A DNA stretch of 64,000 bases from an uncultured Alphaproteobacteria bacterium (GTDB taxonomy: Bacteria > Pseudomonadota > Alphaproteobacteria > Rs-D84): assembly GCA_944393245.1 (NCBI GenBank), contig CALXZM010000003.1:14151-78150 (forward strand), in the 5' to 3' direction. The position numbers and the translations under genes are program-made. Below are positions 112 to 40,512 of this stretch, in pieces. Positions within the stretch are counted from its first letter, which is position 1; every line of letters starts with the position of its first letter. The notes under the pieces were generated by a model that was not told the DNA's origin, made no database searches, and saw only the letters and a program-made list of their open reading frames with translations.

Positions 112-1407
112 ATGATGCAGGCAGCGGCGACAAAAACAATGACTAACTTGGACGATATCAAGGGGGCCATCGCCGCAAAAATGGATTCTGCTGCATTTAC
201 TTCCTGGATTGCACCGTTACAGTTTGATGTTTGTGGGGATGCGTTGGTGTTGACGGCGCAAAATCAATTTTCTGCTGATATTATTGGATCCGTTCATAAA
301 AATGTTTTGGCAAATGTTGCGGCTGGTTTTGGTTTGAATTTGAAAATCGTTGTTCGTGGGGCGGGCGTTGTGGATGCGCCAGTTGCAAATGACAACAATG
401 TTCAATCTTTTGCGCCGGTGGCACCGGTTGCAAACAATGCGCGCAATTTGTCATTGGCGGCATTTGATTCATTTGTATGTTGTGATGAAAATGCATTTGT
501 ATTGTCGGCATGCAAAAAAATGGCGGCGGGGACGGTATCTTTTTCCCCGCTGTTTATTTACGGTCCGGCAGGGTGTGGAAAATCATTATTGGCTGATTGT
601 ATTGAAAATGCATCTGCGGGGCGCACAATTAAAATGTCTGGCGGTCAGTTTGTTTCTGAATTTACACGCAGTCTGCATGACAGAACAGTGTTTGCGTTCA
701 AGGATTTTTGCCGTAATTGTGACACATTTATTTTAGATGATGTTCAGTCGTTGGCCGGTAAACGTGCGACATGTGAAGAATTTGCCCAATTAATTATTGA
801 TTTACGTGCGGCGGGTAAAAATGTTGTGTTAACTGCAAATGTCGCACCGGGTAACTTGAATGGATTTGATCGCAGAATGCAGTCACTGATGGCGTCTGGT
901 TTGGTTGCAGACGTTGTTGCACCAACAACAAATGTAAAGCGTGTTATGTTAATGCGTGCAGGCGTGGCGTCCGATGTGGCAGATGAAATTGCAACACGTA
1001 TTGCGGGTGATGGGCATTTGGTTGGCGGGGTTGCAATGAAAATTAAAACGTATGCTGAATTAATGGGCGCAAATGTAACAATGGATGTTGCCCAACATTT
1101 ATTGGCGGATACATTGCAAAAGGCAAAAACCCCAATCGCAATGGTAAAAATGATGTGTGAAAAATTGGGGGTTTCATATGACGTCGTTTGTGGCAAGGGC
1201 CGCAGTCGTGCAATTGTTTTGGCCCGTCAAATGATGATGGCGGTATTGAAAATTGCAACAAATATGTCATTGACAGAAATAGGGCGCGTTTGTGGTGACC
1301 GTGATCATGCCACAGTTGTATATGCGATTGCACAAATTGAAAAATTGAAAAAGTCTGATTTGGTTTTGGCCGCACAAATTAATCAATTGGTTGCCGATTG
1401 CAAATAA
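112..1407 (+). CDS. dnaA: Chromosomal replication initiator DnaA
   Basis: 431 aa. Walker A GPAGCGKSLL, AAA+ core, and C-terminal DnaA-box-binding HTH (VLARQMMMAVLKIATNMSLTEIGRVCG...DHATVVYA). TGTGGACA DnaA-box-like site upstream at ~80-88. Confidence 0.9.
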   Translation: MMQAAATKTMTNLDDIKGAIAAKMDSAAFTSWIAPLQFDVCGDALVLTAQNQFSADIIGSVHKNVLANVAAGFGLNLKIVVRGAGVVDAPVANDNNVQSFAPVAPVANNARNLSLAAFDSFVCCDENAFVLSACKKMAAGTVSFSPLFIYGPAGCGKSLLADCIENASAGRTIKMSGGQFVSEFTRSLHDRTVFAFKDFCRNCDTFILDDVQSLAGKRATCEEFAQLIIDLRAAGKNVVLTANVAPGNLNGFDRRMQSLMASGLVADVVAPTTNVKRVMLMRAGVASDVADEIATRIAGDGHLVGGVAMKIKTYAELMGANVTMDVAQHLLADTLQKAKTPIAMVKMMCEKLGVSYDVVCGKGRSRAIVLARQMMMAVLKIATNMSLTEIGRVCGDRDHATVVYAIAQIEKLKKSDLVLAAQINQLVADCK

Positions 1408-5540: not shown

Positions 5541-6671
5541 ATGAATAAAAATCCGTATGAAGTTTTAGGTGTCGCACGTGATGCGTCGGATGCTGATATT
5601 AAAAAAGCATACCATAAATTGGTGATGAAATATCATCCTGACAGAAATCCAGGGGACAAGGCGGCCGAAGAAAAATTCAAGGAAGTCAATAACGCTTTTG
5701 ATATTTTGAAAGATCCGCAAAAGCGTGCTGCATATGACCGGTTTGGTGATGCGGCATTTGCGGGTGGAAATGCGTCTGGGGCAAATCCTTTTGGGGCGGG
5801 TGCCAATCCATTTGGTAATGGGGCGTTCCATTTTAACATGGGCGGTGGTGCCGGTATGGATGACATTTTGCGTGAAGCCATGCGTGGTTTTGGTTTTGAT
5901 ATGGGCGGTGGCGCACGTGGTGAAAATGCACAACGTCGTGGGCGCGATTTGCTGGACGATGTGTCAATTGATTTACGCGATGCGTATTTTGGTACAACGC
6001 ATACGGTAAAATTTACAACAAATGTCGAATGTGACAAGTGTCATGGTTTTGGTACCGCAGATGGGAAAGAGGCACCCACATGTTCGCGCTGTGGCGGGAC
6101 AGGCTATGTTCGTACGGCGCGTGGATTTTTTGCAATGGAAACACCGTGTCCTGACTGTAATGGGTTGGGGCATAAAATTGACAAGAAATGTCCACAATGT
6201 GATGGGGCAGGTATTGTACGCAAGACCAGAACACTGGATGTAAAAATACCCGCGGGGGTCGAAGATGGTGCGCGGTTGCGCTTGGCCGGTCAGGGTGAGG
6301 CCGGACAAAACGGTGCGCCGGCGGGGGATTTTTATCTGGATATACATATTCGTCCGGACAAGCGGTTTGTACGCAATGGGCCTGATTTGATTACACGTGC
6401 GGATATACCGTTTACCACATTGGCATTGGGCGGTGAAATAGAGGTTGACACCATTGATGATAAAAAATTATCTGTAAAGGTTCCGGCCGGTACCCAGGTG
6501 GGGGAAAAGTTGCGTGTACGCGGGCATGGAATGCCGGGGCGTCGTGCCGGGACGTTTGGTGATTTGTATATTGAAATAAATATGCCGGTGCCAACAAAAC
6601 TGACCGAAAAGCAAAAGAAAATTTTGACCGAATTTGCCGAAACAAAGGGCACCAGAAAGGGTTGGTTTTAA
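5541..6671 (+). CDS. dnaJ: Molecular chaperone DnaJ
   Basis: J-domain with HPD (KYHPDRNP), G/F-rich region, four CxxCxG zinc-finger repeats, and C-terminal domains. Confidence 0.9.
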   Translation: MNKNPYEVLGVARDASDADIKKAYHKLVMKYHPDRNPGDKAAEEKFKEVNNAFDILKDPQKRAAYDRFGDAAFAGGNASGANPFGAGANPFGNGAFHFNMGGGAGMDDILREAMRGFGFDMGGGARGENAQRRGRDLLDDVSIDLRDAYFGTTHTVKFTTNVECDKCHGFGTADGKEAPTCSRCGGTGYVRTARGFFAMETPCPDCNGLGHKIDKKCPQCDGAGIVRKTRTLDVKIPAGVEDGARLRLAGQGEAGQNGAPAGDFYLDIHIRPDKRFVRNGPDLITRADIPFTTLALGGEIEVDTIDDKKLSVKVPAGTQVGEKLRVRGHGMPGRRAGTFGDLYIEINMPVPTKLTEKQKKILTEFAETKGTRKGWF

Positions 6672-27512: not shown

Positions 27513-27532
27513 TGTATAGGTAGAGAGAATTG

Positions 27533-30280
27533 ATGAAAAACGATCTGAAAATTTCGACACTGACAATTATTTGCGTCTTGTGTACGGCGGTATCTGGTGC
27601 ATATGGTGCATCGTCGGTTCGTTCGTTTGGTGGCAGTGGAACGTATGCCAGTGCATCTGACGCGGCGGCGGCCAATACCAGTTCGACAACTTCTGTTCGT
27701 GGTGGGTCTGTGCGTGTAAATCCGGGATCTGGTGTTTCGGGTTCAAGCACGACTATCGATGCCGGTACAACAACAAATGGCCGTGTTGCGACAACACCGC
27801 GTTTGTCAATTGGGCATTATCTGGGTGGCGGAACGTCAATTAGTGGTGGCAGTTCACTGCGTCCGCAAACGCCGGGATCTTCGTCTGGTGGTTCTTCGTC
27901 CGGTGGTGATGGTGGGTTGGATCCAGATGTTGCGGCGGGACTGCGTCAACAGGTTGATCAATTACAGCGTGATGTCGAAGATTTGCGTAATGCTGATGAT
28001 AATATAAATGACCAGTTGTTGGATAAACAGGATGCTTTAATTCCTGGTGATGATGGTTATATCATTATAGATGATGCTACGAACGAAATCTTTGTTGATG
28101 TCGATGCGTTGCAGGGTGCGTTGGAAACCGTTGCGGGCAAAGATGGGCGTGAAGTTGAATTGGGTTCCAATGATACGCATTTGTTGTGGCGTTATGTCGG
28201 TGAAAGTGGTTGGCATGATTTGATTGCGATTGCTGATATTACCGGTCCCCAGGGCCCCCAGGGTGAAAAGGGTGAAAAGGGTGATCCGGGTGATGCGGCC
28301 AATCTGGATGCTTATTCAACAACTGAACAAATGAATCAGGCGATTGGTAATGCGATTGCCGCGCTGGCGGATGTTTATGCGACCAAGGCAGAATTGGCCA
28401 ATTATGCAACGTCTGATGATTTATCGCGTGGTTTGGCGGCCAAGGCAAATGCAGCAGATGTTTACACCAAGGCAGAGGTTTATAACAAGACCGAAGTTGA
28501 TGACAAGGTTGCTGATATTGTTGCCGGTGATATGGACGGGGCATTGGCCAATAAAGCCGATAAAACGTATGTAGATACACAACTGGCGACCAAGGCCGAT
28601 AAAACAGAATTGGCAAATTATGCCACCACGGAATCTGTTACTGCGCTGGATTCCGAAATGGACGAAGTGAACGCCACTGCGACCGAGGCGGCATTAGGTG
28701 CCGCACAGGCGTTGAGTGGCCTGACCGGCAAAGAAGATACATCAAATAAGACACAAACGCTGACAAACAGTGCAACACAGTATCCGTCTGGTGCGGCGGT
28801 AACGACGGCGTTGGAACAAAAGGCTGATAAGTCTGAATTAGAAAATTACGTCACGTCAGATGAATTGGCAGGCAAGGCGGATCAAAGCGCGTTGGATAAT
28901 TTGACTGGACGTGTTTCCGCGAACGAAGCGGGTATATCTGAATTAAATACCACGATGGGGTCGGGTGAATTGACCACGTCTGACAAAACGGTTTTGGGCG
29001 CAATCAATGAATTGAAATCCAAAACGGACGGTATGGCGACCGACGGTAATTTTGAAGAAATGAATAGCAAGATTACCGAAATGGAAGGCAAACTGGATGG
29101 CAAGCAGGATGTTGCCAATATGGCCCAGACCGTGACCGACGATGAAACAAAATATCCGTCGTCTGCGGCGGTTTATGGCGAATTGGAAACCAAGGCAAAT
29201 GCGTCCGATTTGGCGAACTATGCAACCACTGAAACCGTGAACCAGATAACAGAAAATGTCACCAATGTTACGCAAACGGTAACGCAGTTGGGTGATACAA
29301 TTAATAATGCTGAAACGGGACTGAAAAAACAGGTCGAAGATGCCGTTACAGCTGCGAATACCGCCAAAGAGGCGGCCGATGCGGCGACATCTGCGGTTGC
29401 GGGCAAGCAAGATGCATTGGGATTCACCCCGGAAAATGTTGCGAACAAGAGTTCAACTGTTGTTGATGATGAATCAAAATATCCATCATCTGCGGCGGTT
29501 TATGGCGAATTGGAAACCAAGGCAAATGTTTCCGATTTGGCGAACTATGCAACAACTGAAACCGTGAACCAGATTGAACAAAATGTGACCAACGTCACGC
29601 AAAAGGTTAATGAAATCACTAATCCGGATACTGGATTGGCATCCCAGGTTACAAATATCACAAATGTAATTGGCGATGCGGATTCCGGTCTGGTCAAGGA
29701 TGTTGCCGATGCGGCGGCGGCGGCTGATGCGGCACAACAAACCGCAACAGAGGCTAAAAACACCGCTGATGCGGCGCAAACAACTGCTGACGAGGCAAAG
29801 GCCGGTCTGGATGCCAAGGAAGACAAGTCCAACAAGGCCACGTCTATTACGGGGGAAAACCAATCGTCTGCGACGGTGTATCCGTCGGTTGGGGCGATTA
29901 CCCAATGGACGAATGATCGCATAAATGAATTATCGACCGAGGGCCTGCCCGTGAATCCGGATAATATTGGTGCGGGTGCGATTACCACAGAAAAAATAGC
30001 AGATAATGCCGTTACAGAAGATAAATTGAGTGACGAATTAAATACTGAAATTGATGGCAAGGCAAATACGGCCGATTTGGGGGCGTTGGCGACCAAGGAT
30101 CAGATTACAAATGCGGATGTTGCGGATGACGCGGCAATCGCGAAATCAAAGCTGGCATCGGATGTTCAGGCGGCTTTGGACAAGGCTGCTGATGCTGTAA
30201 GTATGGCGGGTGCGTCTGAAAACAGCGTACTGGGTACCGACGACGAAGGTAATCCGGTCTGGTATGAAATAGCAATGTAA
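27533..30280 (+). CDS. Large secreted repetitive fibre-like protein (paralog 1) with collagen-like triplet segment and tail-fibre-like repeat modules
   Basis: Signal peptide, Ser/Gly/Thr-rich low-complexity N-terminal region, THLLWRYVGESGWHDLIAIADITGPQGPQGEKGEKGDPGD (collagen-like G-X-Y preceded by a W..Y.G...W..L motif), and many ELANYATTE / KYPSSAAVYGELETKA / AITTEKIADNAVTEDKL repeats. The C-terminal module YPSVGAITQWTN...LPVNPDNIG is shared with paralog 2. Confidence 0.7.
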   Translation: MKNDLKISTLTIICVLCTAVSGAYGASSVRSFGGSGTYASASDAAAANTSSTTSVRGGSVRVNPGSGVSGSSTTIDAGTTTNGRVATTPRLSIGHYLGGGTSISGGSSLRPQTPGSSSGGSSSGGDGGLDPDVAAGLRQQVDQLQRDVEDLRNADDNINDQLLDKQDALIPGDDGYIIIDDATNEIFVDVDALQGALETVAGKDGREVELGSNDTHLLWRYVGESGWHDLIAIADITGPQGPQGEKGEKGDPGDAANLDAYSTTEQMNQAIGNAIAALADVYATKAELANYATSDDLSRGLAAKANAADVYTKAEVYNKTEVDDKVADIVAGDMDGALANKADKTYVDTQLATKADKTELANYATTESVTALDSEMDEVNATATEAALGAAQALSGLTGKEDTSNKTQTLTNSATQYPSGAAVTTALEQKADKSELENYVTSDELAGKADQSALDNLTGRVSANEAGISELNTTMGSGELTTSDKTVLGAINELKSKTDGMATDGNFEEMNSKITEMEGKLDGKQDVANMAQTVTDDETKYPSSAAVYGELETKANASDLANYATTETVNQITENVTNVTQTVTQLGDTINNAETGLKKQVEDAVTAANTAKEAADAATSAVAGKQDALGFTPENVANKSSTVVDDESKYPSSAAVYGELETKANVSDLANYATTETVNQIEQNVTNVTQKVNEITNPDTGLASQVTNITNVIGDADSGLVKDVADAAAAADAAQQTATEAKNTADAAQTTADEAKAGLDAKEDKSNKATSITGENQSSATVYPSVGAITQWTNDRINELSTEGLPVNPDNIGAGAITTEKIADNAVTEDKLSDELNTEIDGKANTADLGALATKDQITNADVADDAAIAKSKLASDVQAALDKAADAVSMAGASENSVLGTDDEGNPVWYEIAM

Positions 30281-30294
30281 GGGGAATTTGAAAA

Positions 30295-32133
30295 ATGAAA
30301 AAACAAAATATTGTATTTTCTGGATTTATGGCGGCGATACTGTTCAGTGCCGGTGCGGCCAACGCTGCGACCCAAATTGCCAGCAAGCAGTACGTTGATA
30401 ATCGTGAAACGTCAATCCTGCAAACGGTCAGCAATACATATGAAACCAAGGAAAATGTTACAAACCTGACTGAACAGGTAACCCAGTTGGATGATACAAT
30501 CAATAATGAAGATACTGGTCTGGCGGCCAAGGTTGACGATGCTGTCGCTGCCGCGGCCGCAGCGAAACAAACGGCTGATACCGCCAAATCAACTGCAACC
30601 GGCGCACAAAGCGCGGTAGAGGCATTGGGGGCAACCGTTGGTAATGCTGAATCTGGTTTGGTCAAAGATGTAAATGATTTGCAAACAACTGTTGGTCAGT
30701 TGGATACAGAAATGGATTCTAAATTGGATTCTGCAACCGCTGCATCAACATATGAAGTTATATCAAACAAGGCGGCTGAAATCAACGAAGGTAATCAAAC
30801 ATCGCCAACAGCATATCCGTCAGTGGGCGCAATCGTTCAATGGACTAATAAAAAGATTGCGGACTTGTCAGATACTGGATTGCCAGTTAACCCCGGTAAT
30901 ATCAATGATGGAACTATTGCTGGCAGTAAATTGGAAAATGGCGCGGTCACAACTGATAAAATCGCCGATGATGCGGTGACATCTGACAAAATCGCCGATG
31001 ATGCCGTTGGTTCGGGCCAGATTGCAGACGGTGCGGTTGGTACTGATGATATTGCCGATGGTGCCGTGACATCCGATAAATTGGATGGAACATTGGCGGG
31101 ACAAATTGCCGATATTTCTGGCAAGCAGGACATTGCAATGGGTGTCGGTCACGAAAATCATATCGTGACAACTGATGCGTCCGGTAATATTACATCCGCC
31201 GCGACAATCGGCCAGGACAAGGTTACTGGTTTGACCACGGCATTGGCGGGCAAGGCCAGCACAGACGATATTCCGACCGCGGTTTCGGAACTGACAAACG
31301 ACAGCGGTTATTTGACAAATGCCGATATGACCGGCTATGCCAAAACAACTGATTTGGATGCCAAACAGAACAAAAATGTTGGCAGTGAAAATAATGGTAA
31401 AATTTTGACCGTGGGCGCGGATGGTAATATCACAACATCCGCCACAATTGCCCAGTCAAAGGTCGAAGGATTGGAAACCGCATTGGCGGGTAAATTGGAA
31501 TCTGATGATTTGACGGGCTATGTAACCAGTGAATCGTTAACAACCACGTTGGACGATTATGCCACAACAACGGATTTGGGCGCGAAACAAGATAAATTAA
31601 CCGCAACTGGTGCCGCAAATCAACCCGTATATGTTAATGAACAGGGCGTTGTAACGGCCGGTAACACAATTCCGACGGTAACAACAAATATTACCACGGG
31701 CATCACAGATGCGGCCCAGGCGGGCGCAGTGGCCGATAAATTGGCACAAAAGGAAGATGCCGCGAACAAGGTCAAGACGATTAGTGATGGCAATAAATCG
31801 TCTGAAACACTGTTCCCGACAATCGGTGCGATTACCACATGGACTGACCAACAAATTCAAAAATTGTCTGATACTGGTATACCCGTTAATCCGGACAATA
31901 TTGGCAATAGTGCGATAACGACTGATAAAATTGCCAATGGTGCTGTTACAACAGAAAAATTGGCGGACGATTCCGTGACAGAAGACAAACTGAGCAATGA
32001 TGTCGTTGCATCTATTGATGCAAAGTTACCGGCGCCGGATGCGGACTGTGTTGCGGATTCAAATCTGTGCGTATTATCTGTGACACCAGGGGGTGATTTG
32101 GCGTGGGTTGCGGTAACACAACCGGCGGAATAA
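30295..32133 (+). CDS. Secreted repetitive fibre-like protein (paralog 2)
   Basis: Signal peptide ending ANAATQIASKQYVD. Repeats (K/R)IADDAVTSDKIADDAVGSGQIADGAVGTDDIADGAVTSDKL. Two copies of the YPS(V/T)IGAI.(Q/T)WT...LSDTG(L/I)PVNP.NI module. Trp-containing C-terminus (LAWVAVTQPAE). 14-bp gap from paralog 1. Confidence 0.7.
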   Translation: MKKQNIVFSGFMAAILFSAGAANAATQIASKQYVDNRETSILQTVSNTYETKENVTNLTEQVTQLDDTINNEDTGLAAKVDDAVAAAAAAKQTADTAKSTATGAQSAVEALGATVGNAESGLVKDVNDLQTTVGQLDTEMDSKLDSATAASTYEVISNKAAEINEGNQTSPTAYPSVGAIVQWTNKKIADLSDTGLPVNPGNINDGTIAGSKLENGAVTTDKIADDAVTSDKIADDAVGSGQIADGAVGTDDIADGAVTSDKLDGTLAGQIADISGKQDIAMGVGHENHIVTTDASGNITSAATIGQDKVTGLTTALAGKASTDDIPTAVSELTNDSGYLTNADMTGYAKTTDLDAKQNKNVGSENNGKILTVGADGNITTSATIAQSKVEGLETALAGKLESDDLTGYVTSESLTTTLDDYATTTDLGAKQDKLTATGAANQPVYVNEQGVVTAGNTIPTVTTNITTGITDAAQAGAVADKLAQKEDAANKVKTISDGNKSSETLFPTIGAITTWTDQQIQKLSDTGIPVNPDNIGNSAITTDKIANGAVTTEKLADDSVTEDKLSNDVVASIDAKLPAPDADCVADSNLCVLSVTPGGDLAWVAVTQPAE

Positions 32134-32190
32134 CCGAAACAAAGGATTAAAAAAACAACAAATAAAAAAAGAAAGAAAGGAAAGAAAAAA

Positions 32191-33816
32191 ATGAAAAAAT
32201 TAACAGCAGGTATTTTTGCAACATTATTGGCCGTTGTTTCGGTCGATGGGGCATACGCCGCAATCGCATCCAAGGGATACGTTGATGAAAAGGTTGGAAC
32301 AGTTACAACTGCACTTGGAAATAAAGCTGATAAAACAGAATTGGGTAATTATGCAACAACAGCAGCCTTGACTTCCGGTTTGGCGGGTAAGTTAGATACT
32401 GAGGGTACGGCTGCAAAAGCTACAGCAGATGCTTCTGGCAATGTAATCACAACAACATATGCAACAAAAACAGAATTAAACGCAGCTGAAAAGATTGCCA
32501 ATCGTGTGACAACGGTTTCTGATGCTTCTGATGATACACATTATCCAACGGCAAAAGCGGTTTGGGACGTTGTTCAGGCCGAAACATCTGACATTGCGTC
32601 CAGTGGTGATTTGAGTGCGTTGACAACGCGTGTCGGTACATTGGAAAAAGCGTCTGCGACACATGCGACAAAGACAGAATTAACAGATGGTCTGGCCGAA
32701 AAATTGGATACTGCAACCGCGGCAACAACGTATGCAACCAAAACGGAATTGGCTGGAAAGCAAGATAAAATTGCCGGTGCACAGTTAGAGGCATTGAATT
32801 CAGGAATTACCGCGGACAAGGTAGAGGCATATGATGGTTATGCCGCACAGATTTCTGGCAAGTTAGACGCTGCGGGTACGGCTGCAAAAGCTACAGCAGA
32901 TGCTTCTGGCAATGTAATCACAACAACATATGCAACAAAAACAGAATTAGGTGCAAAAGCGAATACCGCTGATTTGGGTGCATTGGCAACAAAAGATACA
33001 GTAAGCGCAACTGAAATTGATGCAGATGCAGTTACAACAGAAAAAATCCTGGATGCTAATGTAACAAAAGCGAAATTGGCATCTGATATACAGACATCTT
33101 TGGGTAAAGCGGATTCTGCTTTACAGCAAGCTGATTTGGCGGATTATGCAAAGACTGCAGAGGTAGCAAGTACATATGAAACCAAAGAAAACGCAGCTTC
33201 AACATATGAAACAAAAGCAAATGCTTCTGCAACATATGAAACAAAAGCAAATGCTTCTGCAACATATGAAACAAAAGCAAATGCTTCTGCAACGTATGCA
33301 ACAAAAGAAGAAATTAAAGGTATGGCAACTGATGCAAACCTGGCACTGAAACAGGATAAAACAGATAATTCATTGGAAACAACAAGCAAGACAGTTGTTG
33401 GGGCTATCAATGAAGTAAAGACAACCGCTGACGGTGCAAGCACTGCTGCAAAAGCAGCACAAACTGCGGCTGATTCAAAATTGCCGACCGCCACATATAA
33501 CACCCAGGTTGGTACTGTTTCAGCAGAAAATATGGGAACAACGGCAAAAACGGTTGTGACCGCTATCAAGGAAGTAGCAGGTGAAGCGGAGGCTGCACAA
33601 TCTGCAGCGTCTGCGGCAGATTCTAAAGCTCAGGCAGCACAAAGTGCAGCAGAAGCCGCTGATTCTAAAGCTCAAGCAGCACAAACAACTGCTAATGCAG
33701 CTATCCCAAAAGTAAATGCGGAAGGTAGTGACGGTAAGTACGTTTTGACTGCAACGGCTGCAAATGGCGTTGCTACATACAAATGGGAACTTATCGAACG
33801 TGGGTCTGCTGAATAA
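32191..33816 (+). CDS. Secreted repetitive fibre-like protein (paralog 3)
   Basis: Signal peptide plus AAIASKGYVDEKV. Internal exact 75-bp duplication (DASGNVITTTYATKTEL module), 30-bp tandem repeats (TYETKANASA x4-5), C-terminus ...ATYKWELIERGSAE. Confidence 0.7.
   Translation: MKKLTAGIFATLLAVVSVDGAYAAIASKGYVDEKVGTVTTALGNKADKTELGNYATTAALTSGLAGKLDTEGTAAKATADASGNVITTTYATKTELNAAEKIANRVTTVSDASDDTHYPTAKAVWDVVQAETSDIASSGDLSALTTRVGTLEKASATHATKTELTDGLAEKLDTATAATTYATKTELAGKQDKIAGAQLEALNSGITADKVEAYDGYAAQISGKLDAAGTAAKATADASGNVITTTYATKTELGAKANTADLGALATKDTVSATEIDADAVTTEKILDANVTKAKLASDIQTSLGKADSALQQADLADYAKTAEVASTYETKENAASTYETKANASATYETKANASATYETKANASATYATKEEIKGMATDANLALKQDKTDNSLETTSKTVVGAINEVKTTADGASTAAKAAQTAADSKLPTATYNTQVGTVSAENMGTTAKTVVTAIKEVAGEAEAAQSAASAADSKAQAAQSAAEAADSKAQAAQTTANAAIPKVNAEGSDGKYVLTATAANGVATYKWELIERGSAE
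33172..33321 (+). repeat. 30-bp tandem repeat (about 5 units, 3 perfect) inside paralog 3, encoding TYETKANASA
   Basis: ACATATGAAACAAAAGCAAATGCTTCTGCA repeated head-to-tail. Flanking units are diverged by 3-6 substitutions. Confidence 0.85.
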
Positions 33817-33927
33817 TGATTTGTAAAAATGTGTGCGGTGTTAAATGTGCACCGCACACAGGTAAAAAAAACAGATTGCGATAAACGAACAGTGGAACGA
33901 AACAGATACTTTGGGTAGAATACGGAT

Positions 33928-34836
33928 ATGATAAAGTCAAAAGGCATTTTCGCAGTTTCATTTATAGCTATGATGGTGGCGGGTGGCGCATATGCAAATA
34001 TTGCGTCACAGGGCTATGTCGATCAGCAGATTGATACCAGACAGGTTGCCGGTGATTATGCGACGAACACCGCATTGGGGACTGTTCGTACAACCGCAAC
34101 AAATGCCCAATCCGCAGCCGCTGCGGCAAAAACCGCGGCAGATGACGCACAAGATGCGGCAGATGCCGCCGCCAGTGCTGCTGCCACTGCACAGCAAACC
34201 GCCAATGCCAAGGTTTCAACCGCACAGGGTAGTTCTGCCGCTAATAAGGCCGTAATTACAAATGCGTCTGGTAATATCACAACGGGGACAATTTCGTCGG
34301 CGATGATTACAGATGGCACGATAACCAACGCTGATATTTCGGCCAGTGCGGCGATTGCCCAATCAAAAATTTCTGGTTTAACGACTGCGTTGGCGGGCAA
34401 GGCAAATACTGCTGATGTTCCGACAAAAACAAGTGATTTAACAAACGACAGCGGGTTTATTACTGCCGAAGAATTGCCCGATGGATATACTTTGCCGGTG
34501 GCGACAGCAGACACTTTGGGTGGTGTGAAATCTGGTGGTGATATTACTGTGGCGACCAGTGGTGCCGTTACCGTGAACAGTGCAACCAAGGCCGACAGTG
34601 CAACAGCCGCCGCAAGTGCCACCAAGGCGACACAGGACGCGTCCGGGAATGTGATTACAACCACATATGCAACCAAGGCACAGTTGACTGCATTAGATAG
34701 TTCAACATCTGGTTCTGGTGCGGTTGTGACAGATGTTTCACAAACAGATGGCAAGGTTACTGTTACCAAGGGCAATGTTCAAATCCCTGTGGGCAGTGCA
34801 ACCGCAACAACATATGCGACCATTTGGGTTGAATAA
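33928..34836 (+). CDS. Secreted repetitive fibre-like protein (paralog 4, shortest)
   Basis: Signal peptide plus ANIASQGYVDQQI. Shares the DASGNVITTTYATKAQL module and the GLTTALAGKA(N/S)T.D(V/I)PT module with paralogs 2 and 3. Trp-containing C-terminus TYATIWVE. Confidence 0.7.
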   Translation: MIKSKGIFAVSFIAMMVAGGAYANIASQGYVDQQIDTRQVAGDYATNTALGTVRTTATNAQSAAAAAKTAADDAQDAADAAASAAATAQQTANAKVSTAQGSSAANKAVITNASGNITTGTISSAMITDGTITNADISASAAIAQSKISGLTTALAGKANTADVPTKTSDLTNDSGFITAEELPDGYTLPVATADTLGGVKSGGDITVATSGAVTVNSATKADSATAAASATKATQDASGNVITTTYATKAQLTALDSSTSGSGAVVTDVSQTDGKVTVTKGNVQIPVGSATATTYATIWVE

Positions 34837-34840
34837 TATT

Positions 34841-34866
34841 TCCCGCCATTGGCGGGATTTTTTGTT
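34841..34866 (+). terminator. Intrinsic terminator after the repeat-protein array (TCCCGCC-ATT-GGCGGGA + T7)
   Basis: Perfect 7-bp GC-rich stem followed by TTTTTTG. Confidence 0.7.
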
Positions 34867-35000
34867 TTTTACTAGTTTTTATAATCTTGATTTATCTATT
34901 ATTGCCAAACTGGGGCAGGTGTAGAAAATTTAATCTTGATTTATTCCAGTGTGTATTTTAGAATTTTTTGCGTGATTTGGCAATGCCGAATTACATTGAA

Positions 35001-35182
35001 CATCAGTGTTAGTAGACGGGTTTAGTCACCCGAATATAACGCAATAACTAACCGATATGTTCCCGACATAATCGTCGGGAAGTCGTTTGCTATACAACAG
35101 CCCACGTGGTAAAGGCAACGAATTCATCGTTATATTTGAATGACTAACTTCCCGACACCTGAACACTGATCAGGTGTTTTTT
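35001..35182 (+). other. Structured ~180-bp element: candidate cis-regulatory leader (attenuator/riboswitch-like) or MITE-like relic, ending in an intrinsic terminator 16 nt before the PAP2 gene
   Basis: 9-bp terminal inverted repeats ATCAGTGTT (35002-35010) and AACACTGAT (35162-35170). Internal hairpins (CGGGT..ACCCG, and TTCCCGAC-ATAATC-GTCGGGAA with a second TTCCCGAC copy at 35149). Terminator CACCTGA-ACACTGA-TCAGGTG + T6 at 35156-35182, partly overlapping the right inverted repeat so the two pairings are mutually exclusive. Confidence 0.3.
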
Positions 35183-35198
35183 AGTTTAGGGATGTGGG

Positions 35199-35759
35199 AT
35201 GTTGCGTTTTTTGTTTGTTGGGGTGCTGGGTATCACTATATCATTGTGCGCGGCGCCGTATGCGTGGGCCGGTGACGTTATTGCCAAAATAGGGGATTTT
35301 ATTTCTTTTAAGATTTTGCCGGTATATTCGTTTGGAACAACAATTTATAATTCTGATTGGGATACGTGGTACGATTATGATTGGAATGGATTAAAGCAGT
35401 TGATTGTTGTGAATATGGTCAAATCAACTGTTGTTGATGGTATAAAAGAAAATGTTTTTGAAATGCGCCCAAACGGCAGTGGGGGTGACAGTTTTCCGTC
35501 TGGGCATACTGCAAATGCGTTTGCTCAGGCAGCTTTTATTCATCGACGTTATGGTATAAAGCAAGCTATTGTGCCGTACGTGTTGGCCACTTTTGTCGGA
35601 TTTTCACGGGTGGAATCACGTATGCATTATACTCACGATGTTTTGGCAGGGGCGACAATCGGATTTTTATCGGCTTGGATTTTTGCAGACGAAAAAAAGT
35701 CCGTCGTTGTCAGTGCTGATACAAACAGTTTTGGGTTACGTTTTAATTTTGTGTTCTAG
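35199..35759 (+). CDS. PAP2-family (acid phosphatase / phosphatidylglycerophosphatase B-like) periplasmic phosphatase
   Basis: Signal peptide. PAP2 signature blocks KENVFEMRP (KX6RP), PSGHT, and SRVESRMHYTHD (SRX5HX3D). Confidence 0.75.
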   Translation: MLRFLFVGVLGITISLCAAPYAWAGDVIAKIGDFISFKILPVYSFGTTIYNSDWDTWYDYDWNGLKQLIVVNMVKSTVVDGIKENVFEMRPNGSGGDSFPSGHTANAFAQAAFIHRRYGIKQAIVPYVLATFVGFSRVESRMHYTHDVLAGATIGFLSAWIFADEKKSVVVSADTNSFGLRFNFVF

Positions 35760-38728: not shown

Positions 38729-39106
38729 ATGTCAGTATGGACATATATAACCAAAACACCAAAGCATATAATTCGTGCCGATTGGGATGAATATAAGTAT
38801 TTGGGTAAATGTGTGAATAGTGCAAGAAAGAAATGCGATATTGCACGCGCTGGTTTAAACCAGGGGAATAATGGATGCGTGTATGTGCGCTTTTATGATG
38901 TACCGGATTTTGGACGCGATACTGATGGTGGCAGACGGGCTGAACGTGAAACATGCGATAATTTTCAATACTCGGTTCCGTGCCGGAATAAAGATTGCCC
39001 TTACTATGAAAAAAATGTTGAATATTTCAGTGCAATGCATTTGCACAGGGCATTGGCAAAACAACGCAAAATATTCTGGGTACAGAAATTTGCAAATTGC
39101 AGATAA
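38729..39106 (+). CDS. Small Cys-rich protein, paralog A (unknown; mobile-element-associated)
   Basis: 125 aa with 7 Cys including CRNKDC. Basic C-terminus. Shares motifs (W.DE.K...C....R..L; C-x4-C; YF.A....K....FW) with the next ORF. Confidence 0.45.
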   Translation: MSVWTYITKTPKHIIRADWDEYKYLGKCVNSARKKCDIARAGLNQGNNGCVYVRFYDVPDFGRDTDGGRRAERETCDNFQYSVPCRNKDCPYYEKNVEYFSAMHLHRALAKQRKIFWVQKFANCR

Positions 39107-39118
39107 ACGGGGGCCATT

Positions 39119-39493
39119 ATGGTGTGTGCTGTAAAAGAGTGGCGCGATTTAAAACAAAAATGTGATGAAGCGTATAAAAAAGTCGATGCGTGTCGTGATG
39201 CGTTAAAGGGCAGATTTGACAAGCGTTTGTTTTCACCAGAAGCATGTTTTGCATGTATAAAAGTGGCTGTGGATGTTACAGAAACCAAAGATAAAAATTG
39301 GTTCGTTGTTAATTCTGATGTTTCGTTTTGCCCCAAATTTGTTCCTGAAAATTATGACGCAAAATGCACAAATAACGAATGTATGTTTCAACAACGCAAT
39401 CATGCTTATTTTGATGCGCTGAAAAAATATAACAATTTAATTAAGCAGAAAAATACTTTTTGGCGCGATAAATTACGTGTCAGAAAAAAATAA
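39119..39493 (+). CDS. Small Cys-rich protein, paralog B (unknown; mobile-element-associated)
   Basis: 124 aa with 8 Cys (CFAC, CTNNEC). Basic C-terminal tail RDKLRVRKK. 12-bp gap after paralog A. Confidence 0.45.
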   Translation: MVCAVKEWRDLKQKCDEAYKKVDACRDALKGRFDKRLFSPEACFACIKVAVDVTETKDKNWFVVNSDVSFCPKFVPENYDAKCTNNECMFQQRNHAYFDALKKYNNLIKQKNTFWRDKLRVRKK

Positions 39494-39513
39494 AATACAA
39501 TGGGGGACGGGAT

Positions 39514-40512
39514 ATGGCGCATCAATTTTTCTTTAATCCGTTCATATTGGATAATCTGCCTGCGCCGTCCGCCGGGTTTGATGTTGTCCAGGATTTGTCT
39601 GAACCGCGTTTGCGCATGTATGTTACCAGTCGCGGGGTAAAAACTTTTTTCGTGCGCAAACGTGTTCATGGACGTGATAAAAGAATAATTATTGGTAATT
39701 ATCCAGATGTGGATATAGAACAGGCGCGTGGTGCCGTCCCAGGTGTGTTGGCAACCGCCATGGAAAAACCACATGTCCACAGAAAAAAAATAACACTGAA
39801 AAAATTCATGGATTTATATCTGGAAAAACGGGTGCGTCGCAACAGTTATTCGCGATATAAATTGGAACGTGCGATAAAACATCATTTGGGGCCGTTAATG
39901 GATAAAAATATTTCTGATATAACGACCGATGATGTCGCAAATGTAATTGATAATATTGGTGGACGTGCGATTGCTGCGCGTATGCAGGAATTTTTGCAAA
40001 GTGTTTTTAAGTATGCGATTGATTCTGGATATGCAAAACAAAATCCAGTTGCGGTATTACCAAAAATCCAACAAACACGTCGTGTGCGACCACTGAACCG
40101 TGCCGGTTTTCACAGATTGTTGGATGCGATTAATCGTGAACCTGATTTAAATTTGCGTGCGGCGTTTTTAATGTTGGTTTATGCGTTTGCACCAAAAAGC
40201 CAGGTTTTTTCCATGCAGTGGTCTGATTTGGATTTTAATCATGATACATGGGGCGACAGACCCTTGTCTGATATGGCAATTGTTTTGTTACAGGATTTGC
40301 CCCAGGATGGAATATGGGTTTTCCCGGGGCGGGGACGTGGGCATTTGACTGATCCGCGTGTGGCATGGCGACGCGTGGCGAAAAATGCAGGAATTCCAAA
40401 TTTGACCATGGATGATGTGCATAAATTCTTGGTACGACAATTGACTTGGACGTCTGATCGTGAAGATTTTAGGGCCAATATGAATGCGTTGTTGGCTGAT
40501 GTTATGGCGTAA
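39514..40512 (+). pseudogene. Degenerate tyrosine-recombinase (P4-type integrase-like) gene; catalytic residues apparently lost
   Basis: The N-terminal arm-binding-like region (RLRMYVTSRGVKTFFVRKRV) and the integrase SAM-like/core blocks (FMDLYLEKRV...; MQWSDLDF) are recognisable. The box I Arg is replaced (APKSQVF instead of LRRGEL), the box II HxxR is degenerate, and there is no C-terminal Tyr. No downstream continuation in other frames. Confidence 0.5.

Follow-up and report, generated by a model that had tools for sequence, protein, structure and literature searches.

A covarying leader RNA related to sRNA-Xcc1 as a candidate transcription attenuator upstream of a PAP2 phosphatase gene in an uncultured alphaproteobacterium

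The window analyzed here, a 64,000-nt stretch of a contig from an uncultured alphaproteobacterium, contains a gene for a 186-aa protein of the PAP2 phosphatase type (Pfam PAP2, E = 5.7e-17), for which the best NCBIfam match is the lipid A 1-phosphatase LpxE, at 42 bits and thus under the cut-off of 177 (Table 1). The initial annotation had placed a structured element at 35001-35198, directly ahead of this gene. The element is indeed present there, but its promoter and 5' hairpin (34936-34994) were left outside that span. The flagged stretch is the 3' two-thirds of a predicted ~210-nt structured leader RNA, which has a promoter and a terminator to itself. The whole unit occupies 34936-35183 and leads from a sigma-70-like promoter through a 5' hairpin and a structured body to an intrinsic terminator; the covariance-model match to the element stops at 35183. 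The terminator of the upstream surface-protein gene forms the 5' boundary of the unit and lies outside the RNA. Besides this true extent, the long-range helices S2 and S3 and the kinship with sRNA-Xcc1 described below are features that the initial annotation did not contain.

Transcription of the leader would begin near 34971, as predicted from the promoter. Most of 27 relatives carry a TTGnnn-N16-18-TAnnnT box 26-55 nt upstream of helix S1, the flanking sequence being unconserved, and every relative has a hairpin at the position of H1, with a different sequence in each. Compared with 200 dinucleotide shuffles, the fold of 34990-35185 has a z-score of -5.6. At its 3' end, the terminator (CACCTGA...T6) was found where it had been claimed; at the DNA level it consists of ACACCTGA (35155-62) and TCAGGTGT (35170-77) around the loop ACACTGA, followed by T6 (35177-82), and a scan gave a stem of 9 pairs that includes 4 G-C, a loop of 7 nt and U6, as expected of an intrinsic (Rho-independent) terminator. 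The ATG of the PAP2 gene, at 35199, follows the U tract by 16 nt, as had been noted, which leaves no space for a PAP2 promoter; the gene would therefore be expressed solely by read-through. A leader peptide was considered and rejected, the sole short ORF (ATG at 34984, 9 codons) having no ribosome-binding site and not being conserved. 6S RNA, tmRNA, SRP RNA and RNase P, weighed on size and shape, found no support in Rfam or in the context, and for a retron msr/msd, weighed on the same grounds, there was neither Rfam support nor a reverse-transcriptase gene nearby.

Table 1. Features of the leader unit and its surroundings, numbered as in the 64,000-nt window
Feature	Position	Strand	Details
Terminator of upstream surface-protein gene	34841-34866	+	7-bp stem with 6 G-C pairs, then T run
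Sigma-70-like promoter	34936-34964	+	TTGATT (34936-41), 17-nt spacer, TAGAAT (34959-64); 9 of 12 matches in promoter scan
H1, 5'-terminal hairpin	34972-34994	+	10 bp, 3-nt loop; from folds
5' linker (antiterminator 5' strand)	34995-35016	+	Pairs with 35157-35177 in full-length minimum-energy fold
H2 hairpin	35017-35032	+	Stem S1: CGGGU (35017-21) with ACCCG (35028-32); loop UUAGUCA (35022-28) is strand S2a
S3a, 5' strand of long-range helix S3	35033-35041	+	AAUAUAACG; partner 35128-35136
H5 hairpin	35060-35081	+	UUCCCGAC (35060-67), loop AUAAUC, GUCGGGAA (35074-81)
Three-way-junction domain, sRNA-Xcc1-like	35074-35156	+	P1, P2, P3; Rfam RF02221 match and covariation
P1	35074-82 with 35148-56	+	GUCGGGAAG with CUUCCCGAC
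P2	35083-35121	+	Conserved AUACAAC internal loop
P3	35122-26 with 35137-41	+	AUUCA with UGAAU; loop holds S3b (35128-36)
S2b	35141-47	+	UGACUAA; 3' of P3; pairs with H2 loop (S2a)
Intrinsic terminator	35155-35182	+	ACACCUGA, loop ACACUGA, UCAGGUGU, U6 (35177-82)
Shine-Dalgarno-like motif	35188-92	+	AGGGA
PAP2 ORF	35199-35759	+	186 aa; LpxE-like phosphatase motif, signal peptide

An Rfam scan of the whole 64-kb window at gathering thresholds returned nothing at the element, and the Rfam riboswitch classes gave no match to it, in line with the initial annotation, in which no riboswitch class had been recognized. Under the threshold, the sRNA-Xcc1 model (RF02221) matched 35074-35164 over its full length (model positions 1-87 of 87). 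The match has a 9-bp P1, a P2 with the AUACAA internal loop and a P3 hairpin; its score when 501 nt were searched, 35.7 bits (E = 1.2e-4), falls short of the gathering cut-off of 53 bits. The RF02221 scores form an unbroken series between 34 and 74 bits, in which intermediates attain the cut-off: the window is followed by the orthologues L007 (36.4) and L089 (38.6) and the relatives L134 (47.9) and L119 (56.6), with bona fide members in E. coli, Pantoea and Pasteurella at 59-74 bits, and R1, one of the covariance models built in this work, finds both extremes of this range. The window RNA and sRNA-Xcc1 share P1 (GUCGGGnnG/CnnCCCGAC), P2, P3, a CUAAC junction and a 3' ACC. Bona fide sRNA-Xcc1 loci (L144-L146) also carry the 5' module that is absent from the Rfam model, including the pairing of the H2 loop with the junction, S3 and H5, and have a downstream ORF ~45 nt away. 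Judged by this chain of intermediates and by the features shared beyond the model, the leader is a distant, unrecognized relative of sRNA-Xcc1.

There are also differences. The Rfam model describes the 3' domain only, so that the 5' module, H5 and the terminator lie outside the family as described, and sRNA-Xcc1 is annotated as trans-acting, whereas the anatomy of the window RNA suggests control in cis. The gammaproteobacterial loci have no clear U tract, while the window RNA ends in a canonical terminator. Furthermore, sRNA-Xcc1 precedes symE, Bro-N, Rha and ORF6N genes, in contrast to the LpxE-like PAP2 and glycan-enzyme genes of the window family. A literature search for a cis-regulatory account of sRNA-Xcc1 found just passing mentions of its position upstream of symE or ORF6N genes. 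Relatives of sRNA-Xcc1 are located on integron cassettes, phages or prophages and plasmids; BLAST against a plasmid collection gave matches with the Xcc1-like relative L119 as query only.

The feature that had drawn attention to the locus, a 9-nt inverted repeat, was verified: ATCAGTGTT (35002-10) and AACACTGAT (35162-70) are exact reverse complements. The left arm is part of the 5' linker, as is the conserved GUUAGUAGA (35008-16), and the right copy overlaps the terminator as described, covering the last base of its 5' arm, the entire loop and the first base of its 3' arm. By our estimate, an exact 9-nt inverted repeat within ~200 nt would be expected by chance ~0.07 times, and taken alone it is merely suggestive. 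The repeat goes beyond chance because of the fold z-score, the compensatory changes in orthologues and the cognate pairing of linker and terminator. For example, the pairing is preserved as CACAGTT/AACTGTG in L007, L103, L105 and L129, and over 27 members, duplexes between 5' linker and terminator region have -13.06 kcal/mol when both come from one member and -9.51 kcal/mol when they come from different members, the cognate value being equalled or undercut in 0 of 5000 permutations. The terminator/antiterminator logic proposed for the repeat is therefore borne out as a lineage-specific, covarying complementarity of the 5' arm and its flanks to the terminator region.

The repeat had alternatively been ascribed to a miniature inverted-repeat transposable element (MITE) relic, in which the terminal repeats would be features of the DNA and the hairpins incidental. 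An exact 9-bp inverted repeat around ~150 bp is what such an element would show, and the RNA-plus-gene module does occur in differing neighbourhoods, with Xcc1 relatives on the mobile carriers named above. However, the element is present as a single copy in the 64 kb (covariance search with filters off; BLAST), and only the + strand scores (177.9 bits vs 14.4 for the - strand), with frequent G-U pairs. The copies on other contigs are diverged and always lie ahead of an ORF, with which their promoter and terminator are always co-oriented; divergence follows that of the hosts, with no near-identical dispersed copies among them. The repeat is also internal to a conserved block, which continues on its 5' side for ~30 nt, past H1 to the promoter, and on its 3' side for another 13 nt; the repeat sequences vary by lineage yet remain complementary. 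No target-site duplication or flanking direct repeat was found at the element, and BLAST of the element against a phage collection gave no match. A MITE origin is thus almost certainly wrong.

At the RNA level, alignment of the leader family points to eight helices supported by covariation, among which are three mutually exclusive sets: H5 vs P1, P3 vs S3, and the terminator vs the 5'-linker pairing. Some members carry 50-90-nt inserts between S3 and H5, and model R1 mis-aligns the 5' module of these; S1, S2 and S3 were therefore tested on 18 well-aligned rows (alignment A8) and by alignment-free duplex permutations. In A8, pairing holds in 95.4% of cells and both sides are changed in 33 of 50 pairs, a result reached by none of 500 shuffles, and pairing falls to 30-46% when the partners are slid. 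The S1 stem covaries through CGGG/CCCG, GGGA/UCCC, GGAG/CUCU, GGGC/GCCC, GAGG/CCUC and AAGG/CCUU. S2 is 99.2% paired in A8, with three pairs changed on both sides. For S3, all 9 pairs are changed on both sides in A8, the sequences being wholly different between lineages, and the duplex permutation gave -9.39 kcal/mol for cognate and -4.55 kcal/mol for non-cognate strands (0 of 5000 as low).

For P1, P2 and P3, 37 sequences (alignment A7) have 95.8% of cells paired, a level that 0 of 500 shuffles attained. Alignment A7 also supports the terminator, of which all six modelled stem pairs covary (37 sequences), and both sides are changed in 20 of its 31 pairs. H5 has six invariant pairs, and its column 74/97 covaries (UA in 23 sequences, CG in 9). 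Covariance-model alignments are biased towards the modelled structure. In addition, most metagenomic members were found by a pattern requiring CCCGAC...GUCGGG...CCCGRC, so that ascertainment bias accounts for part of their invariance in these bases. A further candidate helix, S0, would pair S1a (CGGG) with the CCCG of P1b; it fits every sequence, with bases that barely vary and a register that shifts between subfamilies. In several lineages the H2-loop motif recurs close to the start codon or within the 3' hairpin loop, a recurrence that is weakly significant (42 of 5000) and phylogenetically clustered. The H2 loop (G/U-UAG) also bears a weak likeness to the ops element.

The exclusive sets follow from shared strands. 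The internal hairpin pointed out initially, TTCCCGAC (35060-67) with GTCGGGAA (35074-81), is present and corresponds to H5, and the second copy of TTCCCGAC lies at 35149-56. H5 excludes P1 because both use 35074-81. The suspected competition between the two copies is supported, since the 35074-82 strand can pair with the upstream copy, giving H5, or with the downstream copy, giving P1, and one position covaries in all three strands; H5 and P1 both keep their pairing at it. Likewise, S3 takes up 9 of the 10 nt in the loop of P3, and covariation is seen in both helices.

In the window, the full-length minimum-energy fold is the antiterminator rod, at -70.1 kcal/mol, and the best terminator-containing fold, in which rod and terminator are combined, has -69.7 kcal/mol. 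The rod alone does not prevent termination, because rod and terminator can coexist in the energy model. An Xcc1-type fold with the terminator reaches -61.7 kcal/mol, 8 kcal/mol worse than the rod with the terminator, in nearest-neighbour energies that cannot score the S2 pseudoknot. Throughout the window's subfamily, the gap between terminator and antiterminator folds is -6.1 to +2.8 kcal/mol, near-isoenergetic in 15 of 15 members; with a shuffled 5' segment it is ~+2 to +9 in 14 of these and -0.4 in L123. In a distant, 'general' subfamily the gap is +0.5 to +9, with 6 of 10 sequences no better than shuffled controls, and by these calculations the antiterminator would not be thermodynamically competitive there. 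Over all 25 sequences the test gave a Wilcoxon p of 1.6e-4. A terminator accompanied by a conserved, exclusive antiterminator is therefore clear in the window's subfamily (15 of 15) and doubtful in the distant one.

These features, namely the covarying structured domain, the exclusive antiterminator and the position as a 5' leader on the same strand as the gene, with a predicted transcription start and no intervening promoter, incline us to read the leader as a cis-acting, riboswitch-like transcription attenuator, which probably decides read-through into the lipid-A-phosphatase-like gene. In such a mechanism, the leader, some 212 nt in length, would be transcribed from its own promoter up to the terminator. 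In a local fold, H1, H2, the three-way junction of P1, P2 and P3 (the sRNA-Xcc1 equivalent) and the terminator hairpin would form, and transcription would stop. In a rod fold, ~50 nt at the 5' end and ~55 nt at the 3' end would form collinear pairs, joining the linker to the terminator region, the H2 loop to S2b and S3a to the P3 loop. H5 would replace P1, the terminator would be blocked, and RNA polymerase would continue into PAP2. Expression of PAP2 would then be set by whichever fold is present while the terminator is transcribed. The balance might be shifted by a signal, such as a ligand, an ion, a protein or the speed of transcription, and the three-way junction, with its invariant junction bases, may be the sensing part. 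Transcription start, termination and read-through in this organism are predictions.

An attenuator of this kind would resemble known riboswitches and attenuators, such as the M-box, T-box and PyrR-type leaders, in its 5'-leader position, in a structured domain with invariant junction bases, in an intrinsic terminator just before the ribosome-binding site with a conserved alternative helix that excludes it, and in downstream genes that are diverse but thematically coherent. It differs in that the 5' strand of the window antiterminator is at the extreme 5' end, ~150 nt from the terminator and within a collinear 5'-3' rod, whereas theirs is a local helix beside the aptamer P1. In hok-type type I toxin mRNAs (fbi, metastable structures), long-range 5'-3' pairing is set against co-transcriptional local hairpins, as is proposed for the leader. 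Xcc1 relatives precede the type I toxin gene symE, which adds to this likeness; however, the pairing in the leader is limited to a non-coding leader that ends in a terminator and does not involve the whole mRNA, and there is no antisense RNA or toxin gene in the window.

The link between leader and gene is consistent. At least six distinct neighbourhoods (beside a surface-protein array; after thyA; near LysR; after RNase E; after a PQQ-repeat gene; after ybaB and a tRNA) contain a PAP2 orthologue with the leader RNA immediately before it, a check for conservation that the initial annotation had called for. The element is 82-91% identical where the PAP2 protein is 66-87% identical, and the U-tract/ATG arrangement is the same at all element-bearing PAP2 orthologues. 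A protein-alignment scan of a genome collection with PAP2 gave, among the matches listed, mostly distant PAP2 genes of other phyla, L007 alone being useful. In 25 of 27 metagenomic relatives, a same-strand ORF begins 20-71 nt after P1. In gut and termite metagenomes, the genes that follow the relatives encode glycosyltransferases, a fucosyltransferase, an acetyltransferase and secreted Cys-rich proteins. In all, the downstream genes form a coherent envelope set: besides LpxE-like PAP2 there are three GT2 glycosyltransferases, a GT10 fucosyltransferase, a GT92-like enzyme, a TupA-type ATP-grasp protein, a hexapeptide acetyltransferase and the Cys-rich proteins.

This linkage bears on whether the locus could instead be a stand-alone sRNA gene, whose product would act in trans by base-pairing or protein titration and fold as it does for maturation or processing, with PAP2 receiving leaky read-through. 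The promoter and strong terminator of its own would suit such a gene. The sRNA-Xcc1 of Xanthomonas campestris was seen as an 88-nt RNA by Northern blot and RACE (PMC2996969), and its homologue in EHEC had 40,293 RNA-seq reads with a ribosome coverage of 0.02, much as for CsrB (PMC5331693). The abundant, untranslated ~88-nt homologues in both organisms (PMC2996969, PMC5331693) suit a trans-acting or stable RNA no less than a leader that ends at its terminator. Family members are also found several times per genome region (L102, L103 and L136), and Xylella has seven sRNA-Xcc1 copies (PMC12189769). Against this, every member examined is co-oriented with an ORF starting within tens of nt, leaving no space for a separate promoter, RNA and PAP2 travel jointly between neighbourhoods, and the conserved linker-terminator complementarity would be useless to a plain sRNA gene. 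We therefore think a purely stand-alone sRNA rather unlikely, although the two readings are compatible, as a terminated leader can act in trans too.

The nature of the downstream genes suggests another alternative, in which the element would be a processive antiterminator of the put or EAR kind, modifying RNA polymerase or blocking Rho, or else an mRNA stabilizer, and would secure expression of horizontally acquired envelope genes with no response to a signal. The gene set, with LPS and surface-glycan enzymes, surface proteins and phage antirepressor-like genes, is like that of an RfaH-type regulon, and the element stands at the head of transcription units. EAR is associated with polysaccharide operons, which also speaks for this reading. 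HK022 put and Bacillus EAR are likewise cis-acting structured RNAs that head surface-polysaccharide or phage-gene operons; unlike the leader, they are not known to have a terminator or competing helix of their own, and the leader resembles none of the put, EAR and LoaP leader families in Rfam, either in sequence or in fold. An intrinsic terminator built into the element, next to a competing helix that is conserved, is how an attenuator is made and differs from the known processive antiterminators, and we consider a processive antiterminator or stabilizer improbable.

If the attenuator reading is correct, an RNA switch would control a lipid-A-phosphatase-like gene in a small-genome gut alphaproteobacterium (Candidatus Enterousia), and its relatives would govern fucosyl- and glycosyltransferases and surface proteins likewise, which offers a testable route to envelope remodelling in the host. 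The RNA annotated in many genomes as the trans-acting, virulence-linked sRNA-Xcc1 would then be the 3' domain of a larger cis-acting leader; its phage, integron and plasmid hits would need to be reread, and its constant position just upstream of a gene would be explained. More speculatively, and with considerable doubt on our part, sRNA-Xcc1 might be no more than the sensor domain of a widespread and hitherto unrecognized class of ~200-nt bistable leaders, an orphan riboswitch or RNA sensor that gates mobile promoter-leader-gene modules. In host-associated Alphaproteobacteria these would carry LPS and surface-glycan genes (LpxE-like lipid A phosphatase, fucosyl- and glycosyltransferases, surface proteins), and in gammaproteobacterial phages, plasmids and integrons antirepressor-like or toxin genes. 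The compact pseudoknotted junction would be stabilized against the rod by a general physiological cue, for instance an ion such as Mg2+, a nucleotide second messenger or temperature. A family with eight covarying helices and three exclusive sets would be an orphan structure well suited to ligand screens and to an extension of the Rfam model.

The PAP2 gene of the window is preceded by a predicted structured RNA of ~212 nt, the parts of which are collected in the table. The initial annotation had confined this element to 35001-35198; the stretch is real, but the unit is larger, with a promoter (34936-64) and the hairpin H1 (34972-94) preceding it. Its other details were accurate: the inverted repeat in which ATCAGTGTT (35002-10) is the exact reverse complement of AACACTGAT (35162-70), the terminator of ACACCTGA (35155-62), loop ACACTGA, TCAGGTGT (35170-77) and T6 (35177-82), the internal hairpin pairing TTCCCGAC (35060-67) with GTCGGGAA (35074-81), the second TTCCCGAC copy (35149-56) and the PAP2 start at 35199 were all found at these positions, and the 34990-35185 segment folded much more stably than its shuffles (z = -5.6). 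Transcription is predicted from the promoter to start near 34971. Since the U tract and the PAP2 ATG are separated by only 16 nt, with a Shine-Dalgarno-like AGGGA, PAP2 has no promoter of its own. An exact 14-nt direct repeat, TAATCTTGATTTAT, lies at 34882-34895 and 34931-34944, 49 nt apart, and its second copy includes the -35 box of the leader promoter.

Features of the PAP2 leader in the window, with internal terminator-like hairpins of related loci in the last row
Feature	Position	Strand	Remark
End of upstream surface-protein gene	34836	+	
Terminator of that gene	34841-66	+	
Sigma-70-like promoter	TTGATT 34936-41, TAGAAT 34959-64	+	17 nt spacer; promoter scan
H1	34972-94		5' hairpin
Linker	34995-35016		holds the left repeat arm and conserved GUUAGUAGA
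H2 stem (S1)	35017-21 / 35028-32		
H2 loop (S2a)	35022-28		
S3a	35033-41		
H5	35060-67 / 35074-81		
P1	35074-82 / 35148-56		
P2	35083-35121		
P3	35122-26 / 35137-41		
S3b	35128-36		within P3 loop
S2b	35141-47		
Leader terminator	35155-82		
Internal terminator-like hairpins	L097 5795-5830; L119 ~6260-6300; L144 ~825-860; L146 ~855-885		

A MAG of Candidatus Enterousia intestinigallinarum, an alphaproteobacterium from animal guts, encodes a protein 100% identical to the PAP2 protein of the window. The latter is closest to the lipid A 1-phosphatase LpxE, below the LpxE family cut-off. Its best named relative is a Helicobacter-type LpxE, at a score far under that cut-off; the protein (35199-35759) is unusually short at 186 aa, with an N-terminal signal peptide and an outer-membrane-protein-like C-terminal strand (...GLRFNFVF). 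Across six contigs of the same species the 362-nt intergenic region is near-identical, none of its four variable positions falling between the -10 box and the ATG, and the upstream gene ranges from 302 to 820 aa. That gene is the last of a tandem + strand array (27530-34836) encoding repeat-rich, Ala/Thr-rich proteins with signal peptides (916, 612, 541 and 302 aa) and no Pfam or NCBIfam match; it varies between same-species contigs with the intergenic region after it identical, and the array looks like a hypervariable surface-protein locus.

When PAP2 orthologues (62-90% identity) were traced to their source contigs, the element was found directly upstream of the gene in several unrelated neighbourhoods: beside the surface-protein array (window, L087, L089, L100), after thyA (L102), near LysR (L103), after RNase E (L105) and, as distant variants, after a PQQ-repeat gene (L097) and after ybaB and a tRNA (L095). 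It was absent upstream of one orthologue (L092). The initial annotation had named a lack of conservation before orthologous PAP2 genes as grounds for refutation, and these loci show such conservation. Element identity was 82-91% where PAP2 protein identity was 66-87%. In some strains of a sister species, the leader is separated from the upstream gene by an inserted GIY-YIG endonuclease gene on the opposite strand (102 aa; L090 5196-5504, L091 3089-3397); in L103 such a gene immediately follows PAP2. Further downstream (38729-40512; also L001-L006, L087, L089), lepA is followed by a pair of small ORFs that are paralogues (125 and 124 aa), and these by a gene for a tyrosine-recombinase-like protein of 332 aa with matches to Phage_int_M and Arm-DNA-binding. 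The number of small ORFs differs between strains, with four in L006, and a recombinase may be driving variation at this locus.

Rfam gave no match at gathering thresholds; in E-value mode, 35074-35164 aligned to the entire sRNA-Xcc1 model (RF02221) with a score of 35.7 bits, the cut-off being 53. Orthologous elements scored 36-39 bits and two relatives 47.9 (L134) and 56.6 (L119, over the cut-off); bona fide sRNA-Xcc1 loci in E. coli, Pantoea and Pasteurella phage-plasmids score 59-74. Like the window element, these bona fide loci have a promoter, the H2 loop-junction pairing, S3 and H5, all outside the Rfam model, and an ORF ~45 nt downstream, which in Pantoea is annotated as a Rha regulator and in Pasteurella as a Bro-N protein. 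That they share the unmodelled parts suggests that the Rfam family covers just the 3' domain of a longer leader. On the E. coli phage-plasmid pNJS001-2 (L144) the locus adjoins ninE, and isrK and C4 antisense RNA genes (179-377) lie ~530 nt upstream of it; the region is of a phage immunity or antirepressor type.

A metagenome scan with the three-part motif CCCGAC..GUCGGG..CUAACnnCCCGRC returned 38 loci, of which ~30 are genuine relatives whose parts follow the same order; a large share of the family was gathered with a pattern that fixes some bases. R1, a covariance model we built from 14 sequences, collected 37 members at E <= 1e-4, including second copies in L102, L103 and L136. With filters off, the 64-kb window contained exactly one copy, at 177.9 bits on the + strand; the - strand reached 14.4 bits and the next best match 12.8. 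This copy number in the 64 kb and the strand asymmetry, together with the G-U pairs and the position of the inverted repeat, speak strongly against the other proposal of the initial annotation, a MITE bounded by that repeat, to which we give practically no chance. The second copies of the family are diverged and sit a few kb or less from the first (L102 5151-5325; L103 3459-3614, - strand; L136 285-444, - strand). The one in L102, 25 nt upstream of a 149-aa ORF and just after PAP2 and a Rick_17kDa-like gene, has the otherwise invariant S2 pairing UAG/CUA changed to UCG/CGA on both strands.

Support for the helices comes from covariation. Among 18 well-aligned sequences, 95.4% of cells were paired and 33 of 50 pairs had changed on both sides, which 0 of 500 shuffles matched, and sliding the partner by 1-3 columns left 30-46% paired, although these shuffles ignore phylogeny and covariance-model alignments are biased towards the modelled structure. 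P1, P2, P3 and the terminator were likewise supported (37 sequences, 95.8% of cells paired). All nine pairs of S3 had changed on both sides, the sequence being wholly different among lineages (AAUAUAACG/CGUUAUAUU, AUAAGAAAG/CUUUCUUAU, AAUCAUCG/CGAUGAUU, GUACAAGG/CCUUGUAC), and S2 covariation reached the most conserved bases (UUAGUCA/UGACUAA, UUAGCCA/UGGCUAA, UCAGAAC/GUUCUGA, UUAGAAAA/UUUUCUAA, UUCGAAAA/UUUUCGAA). H5 has six invariant pairs and one more position that co-changes in H5a, P1a and P1b. In an alignment-free test, cognate duplexes were more stable than non-cognate ones for S3 (-9.39 vs -4.55 kcal/mol) and for the 5' linker with the terminator region (-13.06 vs -9.51 kcal/mol), with 0 of 5000 permutations as low in either case.

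These helices cannot all coexist. H5 and P1 share nucleotides 35074-81 and are mutually exclusive; S3 takes up nine of the ten nucleotides of the P3 loop, such that on steric grounds the two probably cannot both form fully; and the linker pairing engages the loop and arms of the terminator, bearing out the mutual exclusion of terminator and long-range pairing claimed initially. The conservation of all the competing helices suggests that the RNA has been selected for at least two folds. For the predicted leader 34971-35184, nearest-neighbour energies, which leave out pseudoknots and tertiary contacts, put the unconstrained minimum at -70.1 kcal/mol (H1 and a collinear rod of linker:terminator, S0, S2 and S3 around H5 and P2), the rod with terminator at -69.7 and the Xcc1-type junction with terminator at -61.7, pseudoknot S2 not counted. 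For each of the 15 members of the window's subfamily, the best terminator-free fold, in which 12-18 terminator nucleotides pair with the 5' segment, differed from the best terminator-containing one by -6.1 to +2.8 kcal/mol. With that segment shuffled, 14 of the 15 had gaps of roughly +2 to +9 (the exception, L123, gave -0.4), and real and shuffled gaps differed over all 25 sequences tested (Wilcoxon p = 1.6e-4). The 5' segment of the more distant subfamily forms a stable hairpin beside H2, and there the antiterminator was not competitive in the nearest-neighbour model.

The best-supported reading, held with moderate confidence, is that the leader acts in cis as a transcription attenuator. Were the 5' and 3' modules already joined as a rod by the time the terminator region is transcribed, the linker would zip onto that region, such that polymerase continues into PAP2; were the local fold (H2 and the P1/P2/P3 junction) dominant, the terminator would form. 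The likeliest contact site for a cue would be the invariant junction bases AUACAAC, AAAGG and CUAAC. The main rival, that the RNA serves mainly as a stable or trans-acting sRNA, is compatible with attenuation and seems to us rather unlikely. Xcc1 has been treated as an 88-nt trans-acting sRNA (PMC2996969), EHEC Xcc1 is an abundant untranslated RNA (PMC5331693), and its position upstream of symE or an ORF6N gene has drawn passing remarks in two papers.

A same-strand ORF begins 20-71 nt past P1 in 25 of 27 relatives. The products include PAP2, three GT2 glycosyltransferases, a GT10 fucosyltransferase, a GT92-like enzyme, a TupA-type ATP-grasp protein, a hexapeptide acetyltransferase, a Bro-N protein and secreted Cys-rich proteins, and the cell envelope is their common theme. 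Processive antitermination or mRNA stabilisation would agree with this gene set but not with the built-in terminator, and we consider it improbable. In several members the stretch from the 5' module to H5 contains a terminator-like hairpin with a U run, and transcription of these leaders may therefore stop at either of two successive points.

Several RNAs have a second copy of their own H2-loop motif at a site past P1. Among the PAP2 leaders of one clade (L007, L102, L103, L105, L129) this second copy, UUUAGUCA, lies in the SD-to-AUG region and overlaps the start codon (AGGAAUUUAGUCAUG); elsewhere it occupies the loop of a post-P1 hairpin (L119 6410-6440, L144 ~985-1005, L146 ~985-1010). With the copy so placed, S2b could pair with the translation start region, which could add translational control. 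The cognate versus non-cognate comparison was weakly significant (42 of 5000), its cases being phylogenetically clustered.

We found no description of the extended architecture or of a two-state model in the literature on Xcc1. To a known RNA family the window adds a variant that scores below the threshold, belongs to a new lineage and precedes a gene of a new class, and the comparative set yields both an extended leader architecture and a two-state model.
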